Shown: one piece after another, positions 3,029 through 10,502 of the stretch
How positions within the stretch are numbered: position 1 is the first letter of the stretch
Layout of the letters: each line of letters starts with the position of its first letter
UHGV virus genome: UHGV-0117298
Reading direction: 5' to 3' (one strand)
DNA length: 10,552 nucleotides
DNA from: a virus
Made by a program: the position numbers and the translations under genes
The notes under the pieces: generated by a model
Database searches by the model: none
What the model saw: the letters and a program-made list of their open reading frames with translations, nothing else
What the model was told of the DNA's origin: nothing

Positions 3029-3726
3029 AAAACATCGCCGCACAGATGGTTAATTTTGACCGTGAGCAGATGCGTCGGATCGCCAACAACATGCCGGAAC
3101 AGTACGACGAAAAGCCGCAGGTACAGCAGGTAGCGCAGATCATCAACGGTGTGTTCAGCCAGTTACTGGCAACTTTCCCGGCGAGTCTGGCTAACCGTGA
3201 CCAGAACGAACTGAACGAAATCCGCCGCCAGTGGGTTCTGGCTTTCCGGGAAAACGGGATCACCACAATGGAACAGGTTAACGCAGGAATGCGCGTAGCC
3301 CGTCGGCAGAATCGACCATTTCTGCCATCACCCGGGCAGTTTGTTGCATGGTGCCGGGAAGAAGCATCCGTTATCGCCGGACTGCCAAACGTCAGCGAGC
3401 TGGTTGATATGGTTTACGAGTATTGCCGGAAGCGAGGCCTGTATCCGGATGCAGAGTCTTATCCGTGGAAATCGAACGCGCACTACTGGCTGGTTACCAA
3501 CCTGTACCAGAACATGCGGGCCAATGCGCTGACTGACGCGGAATTACGACGCAAGGCTGCCGATGAACTGACCTGTATGACAGCGCGAATTAACCGTGGT
3601 GAGACGATACCTGAACCAGTAAAACAACTTCCTGTCATGGGCGGCAGACCTCTAAATCGTGTTCAGGCGCTGGCGAAGATCGCAGAAATTAAAGCTAAGT
3701 TAGGACTGAAAGGAGCAAGTGTATGA
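3025..3726 (+). CDS. P: Replication protein P (DnaB helicase loader)
   Basis: 233-aa product matches lambda P (MKNIAAQMVNFDREQMRRIANNMPEQYDEKPQVQQ...). Start overlaps the O stop; stop overlaps the ren start. Confidence 0.95.
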   Translation: MKNIAAQMVNFDREQMRRIANNMPEQYDEKPQVQQVAQIINGVFSQLLATFPASLANRDQNELNEIRRQWVLAFRENGITTMEQVNAGMRVARRQNRPFLPSPGQFVAWCREEASVIAGLPNVSELVDMVYEYCRKRGLYPDAESYPWKSNAHYWLVTNLYQNMRANALTDAELRRKAADELTCMTARINRGETIPEPVKQLPVMGGRPLNRVQALAKIAEIKAKLGLKGASV

Positions 3727-6761: not shown

Positions 6762-6901
6762 ACAAAGCATTCGAACGATATATGCGCCAGCGTTATGGCA
6801 ATCGCTATGACCTGACGCGAGATGTTGAAGGTTTCTACTGTAGTGAAATTGTGAAACGAATGTTTGAAGTTTGGTGTCATTGCAAAGGATGGGAGGTCTG
6901 A
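6758..6901 (+). CDS. Small conserved nin-region protein (YlcG-like by position)
   Basis: 47-aa ORF (MNKAFERYMRQRYGNRYDLTRDVEGFYCSEIVKRMFEVWCHCKGWEV), absent from the track because it is under 60 aa. ATG overlaps the rusA stop and its own stop overlaps the next start (TGATG), so it fits the coupled operon exactly. Identity is positional only. Confidence 0.45.
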   Translation: MNKAFERYMRQRYGNRYDLTRDVEGFYCSEIVKRMFEVWCHCKGWEV

Positions 6902-7515
6902 TGCGGCTAACTCCAGTATTCAGCATGGTTAACTTCATTAATGACGCGCACTTTCGCCGCGTATGGAGACACCCGAAGAAAACCATCAACTCTAGCCAGA
7001 AAGCATGGGTTCATTACATGTTACAGGTATGGGGCAAGGTTAATACCGGAGATTGCTCTCCAGGTGGTGCAATTAACGTTATCGGTCGTCTGATGATTCG
7101 CAGTCAGTGGAGCGATGACAAGGCTAAGCAGATAGAGTCTGTCGTCATGCGCCTGTACGAAGAAGATGGGCTGCGCGGAGATGAGCTATACAAGAAAGCT
7201 CGCGAACTGGTCATTCCTCAATCATCGTTTAGCCACATCATCACTCTCGCCAAAGAATCAGATGATGCGGCTTTCGTTGAACGTGTGATGGTTAAAACGT
7301 TTCACCGTGAAAGCCCTGTCCGCGATGTAGCTATTAAGCGATATTGCAATCGCAATTGCACGCAAGATATAGCCAGGATTATTTCTTATATAACAGGTGC
7401 TGATATTCAGTATTGTCGTAAGCGAGTGGTGTGGTGTGAGAAAGTGCTGGAGTCAGAAATGTTTTATGCAATGAAACGAGAATTGGAGAAAGAATTTCCA
7501 TTAATAGCGGCCTGA
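6901..7515 (+). CDS. Putative late-gene antiterminator (Q position), family not recognised
   Basis: 204-aa product from the ATG at 6901 (MRLTPVFSMVNFINDAHFRRVWRHPKK...), with SD gggagg 5 nt upstream. Last gene of the nin operon and immediately upstream of a terminator-containing non-coding region and the holin, i.e. the Q slot. Sequence does not match lambda Q as recalled; Cys pairs (CNRNC, YCRKRVVWC) could form a metal site. Confidence 0.5.
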   Translation: MRLTPVFSMVNFINDAHFRRVWRHPKKTINSSQKAWVHYMLQVWGKVNTGDCSPGGAINVIGRLMIRSQWSDDKAKQIESVVMRLYEEDGLRGDELYKKARELVIPQSSFSHIITLAKESDDAAFVERVMVKTFHRESPVRDVAIKRYCNRNCTQDIARIISYITGADIQYCRKRVVWCEKVLESEMFYAMKRELEKEFPLIAA

Positions 7516-7673
7516 ACTGAAATAATTTTGTAAATGCGTTGCTTCCGAGAAATGAAAGTGGTATTTTTTGTATATGCTCGGAGCAAAAGCGAACTGAGCA
7601 GTGAAATTGAAATCCTGATTTCCCCGGTCGTCGATAATATTTAGGGTCGACATACTGGCTAGATTAGGTAAGA
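7516..7673 (+). promoter_or_regulatory. Putative late promoter (PR'-like) and Q-utilisation region
   Basis: Non-coding AT-rich segment between the Q-position gene and a hairpin terminator. Candidate sigma-70 elements: ttgctt - 17 nt - tatttt around 7551-7579. Exact promoter not resolved; inferred from lambdoid architecture. Confidence 0.3.
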
Positions 7674-7701
7674 GCCTCGGCAGAAACGTCGGGGCTTTTT
7701 T
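7674..7701 (+). terminator. Intrinsic terminator (tR'-like) downstream of the late promoter
   Basis: Stem gcctcggc (7674-7681) pairs with gtcggggc (7688-7695), including two G-U wobbles; loop agaaac; followed by tttttt (7696-7701). Confidence 0.5.
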
Positions 7702-8031: not shown

Positions 8032-8247
8032 ATGAAATCAATGGACAAAATCTCAACTGGCATTGCCTACGGCACCTCCGCAGGCAGTGCTGGCTACTGG
8101 TTTTTACAGTGGCTTGATCAGGTCAGTCCGTCACAGTGGGCTGCGATTGGTGTACTGGGGAGTCTGGTTCTGGGCTTCCTGACATATCTGACTAACCTGT
8201 ATTTCAAAATCAGAGAGGACCGGCGTAAGGCGGCGCGGGGAGAGTAA
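8032..8247 (+). CDS. S: Phage-21-type pinholin (class II holin, dual-start S21 family)
   Basis: 71-aa product [71 protein letters not shown] matches S21 as recalled. Has the dual-start motif (Met1-Lys-Ser-Met4), two hydrophobic segments and a charged C-terminus. SD ggcggagg. Confidence 0.9.
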
Positions 8248-8251
8248 AGCG

Positions 8252-9058
8252 ATGAAGAAAAAATACGAACTGGTTGTTAAAGGGATAAATAATTACCCGG
8301 ATAAGATTACTGTTACTGTGGTACTGGAAATTGGTGGGTATCCGTCACTGTTGTTGCCAAATGTGGCGATTAGTCTTGACCGTACTGAAGGTGCCACGCT
8401 GGAGTTTTACGAAGCTGAGGCGAAAAAGCAGGCGAAGCAGTTTTTCATGGATGTTGCTGCCGGGTTATGTGAAGGGAACGAACCGTTGCCGGAAAAGCGC
8501 CCCATAATTTTAGAGGCGCAGGATGTGTTGATAACCTACAAAGGAAAGCTACCGGGAAGAATTACTGGTTCTCTGAAGATGCCGCCGTCAACACTGCGGT
8601 CAGAAAAAGAGGCGTCTTGTCTGCAGTCTGAGTACTCCATTACGGTTAAAAGTGCCGGAGAGGAAGGAAATAAACGTTATTTTATTGCGTCTGCACCTGA
8701 TAAAGATCAGGAATGGGAGTGTAACCGGCCATCCTTTGTTGTATACGGAGATGGCGGGAAAATAACCATCTCAGAAAATGGGAAATTAACACCGCCATCG
8801 CACCAGCATAGTGAGGCGCTCATTGAATTTGCCATTGATTACCTGAAGAACAATAAACAGCAGGGGCTGATGAAGCGCATTGGTCGTTGCATGGGATATC
8901 TGCAGGTAGCAGCTGAGATTGAAATGATGGCCAGTGGTGCTGACAATGATGCAGTTGTGCTGGAGGCTCTTCTGCGTGATTTTGATAATACGCCCTTTAA
9001 GAAAGCACCTGTTGACTGGATGCAGCCGGGGATGACTTATCTGAAAGGGCGTATATAA
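8252..9058 (+). CDS. Hypothetical protein inserted between holin and endolysin; function unknown
   Basis: 268-aa ORF starting 4 nt after the holin stop. The holin's last codons (ggggagag) can act as its SD, so it is probably co-transcribed with the late genes. No signal peptide or TM segment and no motif I recognise. More AT-rich than the flanking lysis genes. Confidence 0.65.
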   Translation: MKKKYELVVKGINNYPDKITVTVVLEIGGYPSLLLPNVAISLDRTEGATLEFYEAEAKKQAKQFFMDVAAGLCEGNEPLPEKRPIILEAQDVLITYKGKLPGRITGSLKMPPSTLRSEKEASCLQSEYSITVKSAGEEGNKRYFIASAPDKDQEWECNRPSFVVYGDGGKITISENGKLTPPSHQHSEALIEFAIDYLKNNKQQGLMKRIGRCMGYLQVAAEIEMMASGADNDAVVLEALLRDFDNTPFKKAPVDWMQPGMTYLKGRI

Positions 9059-9067
9059 GGTGGCTCG

Positions 9068-9382
9068 TTATCTGTTGCTGGATAATCGACTGAAGATGCG
9101 TTCTTTTTGTGTTTTTGCGTAATGATTGTCCCACTCACAATCAAGGTAGCTTAATTCTTCATTCAACCAGTTATTTATATTGGTCTTAATACGCATAAGC
9201 ATGGGCTGTGTTAATGCTCTGGCGATAATGCCGAGAGTCACAGGTGTGAGATGTCCATACGGCTCAGCCTGAATGGATTTTACTGCATCGTGTTCTTGTG
9301 GGAGGAGTAAGAGGCACTCTGATTTTACCCGCTCATTTATGGCTTGCAGGCATAAATCATAATTATGTTGATCGTTATGCAT
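9068..9382 (-). CDS. Hypothetical small protein, convergent with the upstream insert gene; function unknown
   Basis: 104-aa ORF on the opposite strand to the lysis cassette, with a good SD (agagga, 6 nt before the ATG at 9382 on the minus strand). AT-rich. Separated by 9 bp from the stop of the 268-aa gene. No motif I recognise. Confidence 0.6.
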   Translation of the reverse strand: MHNDQHNYDLCLQAINERVKSECLLLLPQEHDAVKSIQAEPYGHLTPVTLGIIARALTQPMLMRIKTNINNWLNEELSYLDCEWDNHYAKTQKERIFSRLSSNR

Positions 9383-9510
9383 GGTTAATCCTCTACTGAA
9401 ATTGTCAGATATATTTCAGCCATCAGGAAAAACGCCAGTGTCCTACCGCTGGCGGGCTGAAGATTTAACATATCCAGGGATTCGGAACCGATAAATCCTG
9501 ATAAATATCC

Positions 9511-10044
9511 ATGAACACCAAAATCAAATATGGCCTGTCGGCTGCCGTTCTGGCGTTGATTGCCATCGGTGCGCCTGCGCCTGATATTCTCGACCAGTTT
9601 CTGGATGAAAAAGAAGGTAACCACACAACGGCATACCGTGATGGTGCGGGTATCTGGACCATCTGCCGCGGTGCCACAATGGTGGATGGTAAACCTGTTA
9701 TTCCGGGCATGAAACTGTCGAAGGAAAAATGCGACCAGGTTAACGCCATTGAACGGGATAAGGCGCTGGCATGGGTGGAGCGCAATATTAAAGTGCCACT
9801 GACCGAACCACAGAAAGCGGGTATAGCGTCATTTTGTCCCTATAACATTGGCCCCGGTAAGTGTTTCCCGTCGACGTTTTATAAGCGGCTGAATGCCGGT
9901 GATCGTAAAGGTGCATGCGAGGCGATTCGCTGGTGGATAAAAGATGGTGGGCGCGATTGCCGCATACGTTCAAATAACTGCTATGGACAGGTTATTCGTC
10001 GTGACCAGGAAAGCGCATTAGCCTGTTGGGGGATAGATCAGTGA
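9511..10044 (+). CDS. SAR endolysin (signal-arrest-release lysozyme, T4-lysozyme/GH24-like)
   Basis: 177 aa. N-terminal weakly hydrophobic Gly/Ala-rich SAR segment ([17 protein letters not shown]), then a catalytic-triad pattern E-x8-D-x5-T ([20 protein letters not shown]), as in R21 and P1 Lyz. Stop overlaps the Rz start. Confidence 0.9.
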
Positions 10045-10502
10045 GCAGAGTCGCCGCGATTATTTATGCTCTGGTTATCTGCATCATCGTCTGCCTGTCA
10101 TGGGCTGTTAATCATTACCGTGATAACGCAATCGCCTACAAAGCCCTGCGCGACAAAAATGCCAGAGAACTGAAGCTGGCGAACGCGGCAATTACTGACA
10201 TGCAGATGCGTCAGCGTGATGTTGCTGCGCTCGATGCAAAATACACGAAGGAGTTAGCTGATGCGAAAGCTGAAAATGATGCTCTGCGTGATGATGTTGC
10301 CGCTGGTCGTCGTCGGTTGCACATCAAAGCAGTCTGTCAGTCAGTGCGTGAAGCCACCACCGCCTCCGGCGTGGATAATGCAGCCTCCCCCCGACTGGCA
10401 GACACCGCTGAACGGGATTATTTCACCCTCAGAGAGAGGCTGATCACTATGCAAAAACAACTGGAAGGAACCCAGAAGTATATTAATGAGCAGTGCAGAT
10501 AG
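10041..10502 (+). CDS. Rz: Rz i-spanin (inner-membrane spanin subunit)
   Basis: 153-aa product from the GTG at 10041 ([59 protein letters not shown]...) matches lambda Rz as recalled: N-terminal TM segment plus coiled-coil periplasmic domain. The track's TTG at 10026 is an upstream extension. Confidence 0.9.
10261..10443 (+). CDS. Rz1: Rz1 o-spanin (outer-membrane lipoprotein), embedded in the +1 frame of Rz
   Basis: 60-aa product [60 protein letters not shown] matches lambda Rz1. Has a lipobox (LVVVGC) and a proline-rich mature region. Lies entirely within Rz. Confidence 0.9.

Follow-up and report, generated by a model that had tools for sequence, protein, structure and literature searches.

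We analysed a 10,552-nucleotide (nt) stretch of viral DNA, UHGV virus genome UHGV-0117298, which at its full length is called the window below. The listing of its open reading frames (ORFs) and their Pfam matches identify it as the right arm of a lambdoid prophage, with immunity and replication genes followed by Q and the lysis genes. The region of interest is positions 8252-9510, a slot of about 1.26 kb between an S21-type pinholin gene (S) and an endolysin gene (R) with a signal-anchor-release (SAR)-like N-terminus. In phages 21 and lambda the endolysin gene directly follows the holin gene. Here the slot contains two convergent genes, ORF-A (plus strand) and ORF-B (minus strand), and upstream of ORF-B a conserved leader that also precedes many unrelated small genes. 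We consider it probable, with modest confidence, that a late YdfR-family accessory gene and a reverse-oriented moron cassette share the 1.26 kb. The two ORFs have the coordinates and orientation given in an initial annotation of the DNA, and the slot is made up as follows:

8032-8247, plus strand: S21-type class II holin (pinholin), 71 amino acids (aa), the upstream border of the slot (Pfam PF04971, 8.6e-36)
8252-9058, plus strand: ORF-A, 268 aa (ORF listing)
8252-8605, plus strand: DUF1327/YdfR N-terminal domain of ORF-A (aa 1-100) and linker to about aa 118 (Pfam PF07041)
8606-9058, plus strand: X core of ORF-A, the C-terminal part of a separate unannotated family (homologue comparison, hhalign)
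9068-9382, minus strand: ORF-B, 104 aa, convergent to ORF-A (ORF listing)
9383-9510, minus strand: 128-nt spacer, the conserved leader, from the endolysin start codon to the ORF-B ATG
9511-10044, plus strand: endolysin R, 177 aa, with a SAR-like Gly/Ala-rich N-terminal segment, the downstream border of the slot (Pfam PF00959, 4.7e-25)

The ATG of ORF-A lies 4 nt past the holin stop and is preceded by GGGGAGAG, which contains a GGAG Shine-Dalgarno sequence; the initial annotation had described the gene as positioned for translational coupling to the holin. Residues 1-100 match PF07041 (1.7e-43, 147.2 bits against a cut-off of 25), and residues 1-78 share 44% identity with K-12 YdfR (E 1e-20). 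The protein also matches PHROG 1085 (8.9e-159), whose annotated function is unknown. The initial annotation recognised a motif in neither protein and thought both unlike ydfR. The first statement stands for ORF-B, which has no Pfam match, and fails for ORF-A; the second is contradicted by the N-terminal domain of ORF-A, which is of the YdfR family. ORF-A exceeds the size of a single-domain YdfR (~100 aa), and its residues 119-268 belong to the family that we call X. Judged by these matches, it is a chimeric "long YdfR", better termed a YdfR-domain fusion.

The X core, which is conserved in phages of E. coli and Salmonella and in metagenomic ones, has two conserved motifs, GRCMGYLQVAAEIE and a C-terminal PG-x-x-YLK-x-R. 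Since relatives with 33-39% identity (homologues from Salmonella and from metagenomic phages) keep these motifs invariant, the C-terminal part of ORF-A is real. An hhalign comparison of the X core of ORF-A with a distant X protein gave a probability of 99.95% at 35% identity. Some members of the family stand alone (165-221 aa, with a coiled coil at the N-terminus), others are longer fusions to DUF1327 (285-333 aa), and others have the 268-aa form, which relative to the longer fusions is missing the coiled coil, in frame; hundreds of sequences belong to the clusters of this 268-aa form. No relatives of the X core were found in Pfam, NCBIfam, PADLOC, or PDB. The family appears to be narrow, because only two loci (E. 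coli and Shigella) carry X among species-representative genomes.

ORF-A is predicted to be soluble (isoelectric point 5.9, no transmembrane segment, maximum 19-residue Kyte-Doolittle mean 1.31), which marks it as a cytoplasmic protein rather than a lysis protein of the membrane. AlphaFold modelled it poorly, with a predicted local distance difference test score (pLDDT) of 50 overall. Residues 1-70 are modelled with moderate confidence as a beta-sheet and a long helix (pLDDT 61-83), residues 70-154 are disordered, and a beta-meander and helices follow; a fold search with the model returned nothing usable.

The first 72 residues of K-12 YdfR are sufficient for two-hybrid interaction with Rne and Rng, and the full-length protein co-purified Rne 1-598 (the catalytic half of RNase E) and RNA (PMC13232886). 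The stretch of ORF-A that aligns with YdfR, aa 1-78, covers these 72 residues, and by analogy with this 44%-identical protein ORF-A may bind RNase E as well. Apart from the RNase E paper, the searchable literature, which leaves most subscription journals outside its reach, yielded nothing on what DUF1327 does.

All copies examined have an uninterrupted 268-codon frame. In E. coli, RefSeq annotation by the Prokaryotic Genome Annotation Pipeline (PGAP) calls the gene a pseudogene ("YdfR family protein, incomplete, missing C-terminus") and annotates only the first 112-114 codons (e.g., 3353-3694 in locus L001 and 2161-2496 in L002). This call seems to stem from a length mismatch with the YdfR model. 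Two database entries for the family are unusual. The record of phage 86 gp05 (L003, 3993-4799) carries the note "Homologous to COG0188 type IIA topoisomerase A subunit", for which Pfam, NCBIfam, and PDB searches gave no support. An IMG/VR contig (L144, 863-1993) has the holin and YdfR-X joined as one 376-aa ORF, which could be due to a frameshift that eliminates the holin stop or to faulty sequencing.

ORF-B has the ribosome-binding site of its own that the initial annotation had assigned to it, GAGGA at 9389-9393, 7 nt before the ATG. Intact homologues share 26-48% identity with it, and an exhaustive profile search found intact homologues of 105-120 aa at 26-43% identity. In comparison with the 77%-identical copy in LC567842, the ratio of nonsynonymous to synonymous substitution rates (dN/dS) is 0.27. 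AlphaFold predicts a confident, soluble-looking five-helix bundle (pLDDT 88, predicted template modelling score 0.81), and a structure search with this model returned only generic helical neighbours. The maximum 19-residue Kyte-Doolittle mean is 1.16, with no transmembrane, SAR, or lipoprotein signal segment. Because of the distant intact homologues, the dN/dS, and the confident model, ORF-B is a real gene. Both ORF-A and ORF-B are thus conserved coding genes and not chance ORFs.

There is nothing similar to ORF-B in Pfam, NCBIfam, or PADLOC, and no relative of known function was detectable. The homology and structure searches proposed at the outset placed the N-terminal domain of ORF-A in DUF1327 and gave no functional relatives for ORF-B or the X core. 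A weak PDB sequence match of ORF-B to an RpiR-like helix-turn-helix domain (HTH_6, E 0.076) was gone with a broader profile and had no structural support. Similarity to DUF1883 or DUF1823, encoded by the convergent genes in Salmonella and PhiR5_1, was not found either.

Comparison with other phages shows which part of the slot moves as a unit. Two blocks are cleanly absent from related sequences:

9079-9487: 409-bp block (ORF-B and most of the leader), absent from X-only contigs (blastn against L102 and L114)
8588-9444: block absent from H-19B (blastn and junction sequences)

In L102 the last 11 nt of ORF-B are kept (...N R stop) and the sequence is otherwise collinear. Because of this remnant, L102-type contigs look like deletion derivatives. 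H-19B encodes a short 113-aa YdfR, and its right junction lies inside hairpin 1 of the leader (described below), at a short repeat. The match of H-19B and many Shiga toxin (Stx) phages to 8252-9510 is confined to its first 328 nt, and another common type has an ORF-B homologue and only a 65-aa X remnant. In Qin, ydfR is tightly packed between essQ and rrrQ and has their orientation; this is the precedent named in the initial annotation. From these gene orders, a ydfR-family gene is the usual occupant of the S21-R slot (Qin, H-19B, many Stx phages). The region had been described as a two-gene insertion; this does not hold, because the ydfR-type gene is the usual tenant and only ORF-B with its leader acts as a discrete indel. 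The proposal that occupancy of the slot varies was borne out by the clean indels in H-19B and L102-type contigs and by three unrelated cargoes found in the slot among the matches listed, and the two genes are not a constant accompaniment of this endolysin.

The leader first became apparent when we compared the upstream DNA of ORF-B homologues whose proteins are no more than 37-48% identical. It contains a near-invariant motif, TCAGCCCG(C/T)CAGTG-loop-CACTGGCG. A scan of IMG/VR with the leader pattern gave at least 120 contigs, and we aligned 66 distinct copies (164 nt, among the matches listed). The parts of the leader are, in order, an upstream box, a TA-n-n-(G/T)-T hexamer, hairpin 1, a variable linker, hairpin 2, a Shine-Dalgarno sequence, and the ATG of the cargo gene. 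In the window we find:

9467-9472, minus strand: putative -10-like hexamer TATGTT (conserved columns; family TA-n-n-(G/T)-T, 12 nt before hairpin 1)
9433-9454, minus strand: hairpin 1, CGCCAGCG-gtagga-CACTGGCG, followed by U5 in the window copy
9395-9420, minus strand: hairpin 2, with a variable stem just before the Shine-Dalgarno sequence (consensus loop AUGGCUGAU, window loop AUAUCUGAC)

In the 66 aligned copies hairpin 1 is 99.4% paired and almost invariant. In 53 of them one of its pairs is U.G, a pair that can form only in the cargo-sense RNA. For hairpin 2, pair counting shows compensatory changes at four of the five stem pairs; the window stem is UGAAAU/AUUUCA compared with a consensus of GAGGG/CCUC. 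Both hairpins form in the predicted fold of the window leader, where the Shine-Dalgarno sequence is partly sequestered (minimum free energy -24.3 kcal/mol, z -2.07). A search of the window against Rfam gave no match to the leader at the gathering threshold and only chance-level matches at E <= 10. The initial annotation had guessed that ORF-B has its own promoter within 9383-9510. This fits well, as the leader in that interval is conserved and also stands before annotated morons of HK022 and ES18, and TATGTT is a candidate -10 element.

Two further features were considered as parts of the leader and rejected. The upstream box was compared by eye, on aligned copies, with a LexA box; it has the form CTG-N9-CAG and not the N10 spacing. 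A possible hairpin 0 in the promoter-like part (CAGGGT/ACCCTG) is not counted as RNA structure, as only four of six pairs hold, with little covariation.

Several other features of the leader are recorded here. The conserved loop of hairpin 2 contains an AUG (AUGGCUGA) that opens a very short upstream ORF, possibly a leader peptide, in several copies. In the window this ORF (9385-9423, minus strand) reads MAEIYLTISVED and ends 2 nt before the ORF-B ATG; its counterparts are MAVTSG in L012 and MADC in L013, and the close relative L004 has CUG instead. Most leader copies (e.g., L187, 4390-4466; alignment columns 1-22) have a GC-rich hairpin at the cargo-distal end, which on the late-sense strand has the form of an intrinsic terminator (GCCGCCATCGTGCGGC and then T6) and has a covarying stem (GCCGC/GGCGGC vs GCCACC/GGTGGC). 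The window copy has no such hairpin because the endolysin gene starts there. In three E. coli loci (L016-L018, ~3300-3480) with a P0161-type ORF-B homologue, the promoter-like part is kept (TATCAGGATTTATCGG...CCATGGTATGT) and both hairpins are lost, with a perfect TATAAT 49 nt before the ATG of the homologue. The leader seems, from these three loci, to be modular.

The genes behind the leader are diverse. At 115 loci among the matches listed, the first ORFs after the leader fall into at least 29 unrelated clusters, mostly of 65-105 aa, with ORF-B as one cluster. Most of the other cargoes are intact small ORFs with Shine-Dalgarno sequences. Representatives gave no Pfam function, and they belong to PHROGs of unknown function. 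The leader precedes gp23 of HK022 ("moron gene product", between tail genes I and J), gp25 of ES18 ("possible moron", between tail genes M and L), and gp70 of mEp043 (located after Rz), and HK633 also carries it. The S-R slot with the leader abutting the endolysin start codon was found in 20 copies with three unrelated families of reverse cargo (among the matches listed). In Salmonella the leader stands before an unrelated DUF1883 gene that is convergent to X.

Two of these loci have additional content. The HK022 moron gene behind the leader (L302, 2651-2872) is annotated as "srb protein" and is homologous to the commonest cargo cluster (73 aa, MSNIRYIEGLKLS...). In Salmonella diarizonae (L009, 2025-4941) the pR' moron site is a dense island of accessory genes: a ParE-toxin/HTH pair and a DUF4406 gene come first, then the X homologue (here between Q and the holin), and then the convergent DUF1883 gene with the same leader.

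A convergent forward ORF ends beside the cargo in 108 leader loci (among the matches listed). DUF1327 is directly detectable in 22 of these, and 24 forward partners cluster by BLAST with the YdfR-X fusions. Several partners are proteins of 50-63 aa that start with the LEQRV-x-x-LE coiled coil typical of X, and the ES18 partner, gp24, is a DUF1327 protein. The largest cluster of forward partners (49 loci, ~111 aa) has no Pfam match to DUF1327, and hhalign gave a probability of only 2.4%. The recurrence of DUF1327 and X opposite leader cargo may point to a composite module. A search of the accessible literature, without most subscription journals, found no description of this frequent pairing.

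The base composition of the slot is distinct, if modestly so. The region was first described as AT-rich relative to its flanks, which is true by a small margin: 8252-9510 has a GC content of 44.8% (ORF-A 46.2%, ORF-B 41.0%, whole window 47.7%), compared with ~51% for S, R, and Rz (R 51.3%, S 52.3%). The 409-bp block 9079-9487 has 42.1%, a moderate gap to R and S. The 1259 bases of 8252-9510 are 99.7% identical at the DNA level to Stx2-converting phage 86, in which the two genes are annotated as gp05 ("YdfR family protein") and gp06 ("hypothetical"). ORF-B DNA is present in 95 of 5426 complete E. coli genomes, including O104:H4 2011C-3493, and the entire lysis region also matches E. coli strain 55989. 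The remaining lysis genes of the window are (ORF listing/Pfam):

10026-10502: Rz
10261-10443: Rz1

Upstream of the holin, a strong terminator-like hairpin with a U-run (7670-7699, plus strand) lies between a Q-like gene (6871-7515) and the holin, where tR' of a late promoter region is expected. The Q-to-S interval of the window prophage contains no stx and no other cargo.

We propose the following mechanism for a late YdfR-family gene that shares the slot with a moron cassette. The Q-dependent late transcript would include ORF-A, whose translation would directly follow that of the pinholin and give a YdfR N-terminal domain joined to the X core by a disordered linker. The 128-nt spacer would serve as an expression platform that consists of a promoter-like region and a 5' untranslated region with two hairpins just before the ribosome-binding site, and different phages have placed at least 29 unrelated small genes behind it. 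ORF-B would be transcribed from the leader in the lysogen, against the silent late operon, and after induction it would be shut off by converging antiterminated late transcription. We infer lysogenic expression and late silencing because of the layout, the precedent of lambda bor, and a prophage transcriptome according to which a gene antisense to late genes can be expressed in the lysogen from a transcription start of its own (PMC7067206). ORF-B may then be a cytoplasmic accessory protein of the lysogenic phase, with host modulation or anti-phage action as its likeliest roles. The accessory or moron module envisaged in the initial annotation is accordingly retained for ORF-B with its leader and dropped for ORF-A, the usual resident of the slot.

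Several points weigh against this proposal. A consensus sigma-70 scan of 9383-9510 calls no promoter, and the proposed -10 hexamer TATGTT is weak, with a poor -35. Hairpin 1 followed by U5 in the window copy could terminate the ORF-B transcript rather than lead it. The near-invariance of hairpin 1 means that it has no covariation support, and it could equally be a DNA site or a protein-binding site. No hairpin with a U-run lies beyond the ORF-B stop; the one structure there is a long-range inverted repeat (8988-9002/9040-9054) that has no U-run, so the cassette is without the terminator of its own that belongs to the definition of a moron as far as it is summarised in PMC3594210. The ORF-A model does not give the fold of X, RNase E binding is extrapolated from a single 44%-identical protein, and expression of ORF-B in the lysogen is argued by analogy.

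We regard it as unlikely that ORF-A and ORF-B form one functional pair, i.e., a toxin-antidote, abortive-infection, or exclusion module in which a late forward protein neutralises, or is neutralised by, a reverse protein made in the lysogen. Homologues of X and ORF-B are convergent neighbours in lineages at 35-48% protein identity, sometimes with a 3' overlap of 33 nt, and they stay so even upstream of the holin (L012, L013-15, L046); the forward gene at the 108 leader loci is also repeatedly DUF1327, X, or a small LEQRV coiled-coil protein. However, each gene is common alone: about 50 of 80 X-bearing viral contigs are without ORF-B, and about 47 of 80 ORF-B-bearing contigs are without an intact X (a 65-aa decayed remnant or none). 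Because each occurs without the other, they are not an obligate pair. The Salmonella X gene faces unrelated DUF1883 cargo behind the leader, and a convergent layout is atypical of toxin-antitoxin operons. The defence or toxin-antidote role that was among the first suggestions also has no signature here, as ORF-A, its C-terminal part, and ORF-B matched no family of PADLOC-DB v2 at E <= 1.

It is similarly improbable that ORF-A assists lysis or regulates its timing, with the envelope, the pinholin, or the SAR endolysin as its point of action. Such a role would account for a gene that sits right behind S21, is coupled to it, and is translated from the same late mRNA; it also agrees with the ydfR-family genes that hold the slot in Qin, H-19B, and many Stx phages. 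A genetic screen, as it is cited in PMC13232886, ties K-12 ydfR to envelope integrity. Against a lysis role, ORF-A is without a transmembrane or signal segment (maximum hydropathy 1.31), and the hydropathy profiles of ORF-A and ORF-B have no holin-, antiholin-, or spanin-type signal (transmembrane, SAR, or lipoprotein). DUF1327 genes also occur between tail genes (ES18 gp24) and beside leader cassettes at other late-operon sites, truncated or deleted forms of ORF-A are frequent, and in phages 21 and lambda the endolysin gene comes directly after the holin gene.

Less likely still is the alternative that the product of the cassette is an RNA and not the ORF-B protein. Such an RNA would be antisense to ORF-A and the holin and would damp leaky late expression or related superinfecting phages. 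With no terminator after ORF-B, a transcript would run antisense into ORF-A and S; an antisense RNA within the late genes of Salmonella prophage BTP1 blocks superinfection (PMC7067206), and convergent small RNAs (sRNAs) occur at the pR' moron site of enterohaemorrhagic E. coli prophages (PMC4104026). The purifying selection on ORF-B (dN/dS 0.27), its confident model, its intact homologues at 26-48% protein identity, and the fact that most other cargoes are also intact small ORFs with Shine-Dalgarno sequences all argue for a protein product.

That the C-terminal two-thirds of ORF-A is a meaningless recombination read-through, as the RefSeq pseudogene call implies and as its poor structure prediction might suggest, is very improbable given the intact 268-aa frame in every copy examined, the clusters with hundreds of sequences, and a C-terminal core that also occurs as stand-alone proteins with invariant motifs at 33-39% identity.

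A late YdfR-family gene beside a moron cassette, our preferred reading, could be extended by a more speculative step, to which we give little credence. DUF1327/X and the leader would be a matched pair, in which the late proteins recognise hairpin 1 and the hairpin 2 loop and hand the leader RNA to RNase E as RapZ does with its RNA, switching the cargo off in the lytic phase. If true, this would be a portable, lysogeny-only expression socket with exchangeable cargo, and the first function for YdfR/DUF1327.

Database records for both genes exist, as hypothetical proteins, and the notion of a moron is not new. We found no description, in Rfam or in the searchable literature, of a structured leader shared by many morons with exchangeable cargo; the original HK97/HK022 paper lies outside that literature, so an earlier mention of the HK022 copy is possible. 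Morons are the store from which temperate phages supply genes that change the host, including toxins, exclusion systems, and serum resistance. Here one family of enterobacterial lambdoid morons shares a fixed structured leader, behind which dozens of unrelated small cargoes are swapped at several late-operon sites, including the lysis cassette. The hairpin 1 motif provides a sequence handle for harvesting candidate effectors of the lysogenic phase, and the leader is a defined regulatory element open to testing. The position of YdfR/DUF1327, a reported RNase E binder, beside a conserved RNA element suggests a testable function. The cassette is also present in clinically relevant strains and phages (O104:H4 2011C-3493, 55989, and Stx2 phage 86).

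Among known systems, YdfR of the K-12 Qin prophage (b1555) is homologous to the N-terminal domain of ORF-A and shares its place on the late strand between an S21-type holin and an endolysin. K-12 YdfR is a single-domain protein of 103 aa whose gene overlaps the endolysin start with its stop and has no reverse gene behind it, whereas ORF-A has 268 aa with the added X core and is followed by a convergent cassette. RapZ, which delivers the sRNA GlmZ to RNase E, is an analogue only: the likeness is that K-12 YdfR also binds to the catalytic half of RNase E and is purified together with RNA, and there is no sequence or fold relationship. We know of no RNA partner for any DUF1327 protein. The comparison of YdfR with RapZ was made by the authors of PMC13232886.

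Like ORF-B, bor of lambda and its homologue in phage 86 are small genes in the late region that oppose late transcription (in the phage 86 record, bor is on the strand opposite the lysis genes). Lambda bor is expressed from the prophage. Bor is a lipoprotein encoded after Rz, whereas ORF-B is predicted to be a soluble helical protein encoded between S and R. The leader was not found upstream of bor in the loci examined. The bor gene has been discussed as a moron (PMC3594210).

Morons were defined by Juhala et al. (2000) from HK97 and HK022, here as far as summarised in PMC3594210, and by its sequence the cassette of the window appears to have most features of that definition, the exceptions being a recognisable terminator and a consensus promoter. 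It is extra DNA (9079-9487 is absent from L102/L114, and 8588-9444 from H-19B) and deviates in base composition (42.1% GC vs 51.3% in R and 52.3% in S). It also carries an upstream element of its own, the one that stands before annotated morons; in place of a called sigma-70 promoter this has the conserved hexamer 12 nt before hairpin 1. The closest likeness is to gp22/gp23 of HK022 and gp24/gp25 of ES18. Those cassettes lie between tail genes and have other cargo and an annotated terminator, whereas the cassette of the window sits within the lysis cassette, directly against the endolysin start codon, and no terminator of its own can be recognised. All three are extra DNA of different GC content in a late operon, with the identical type of leader.

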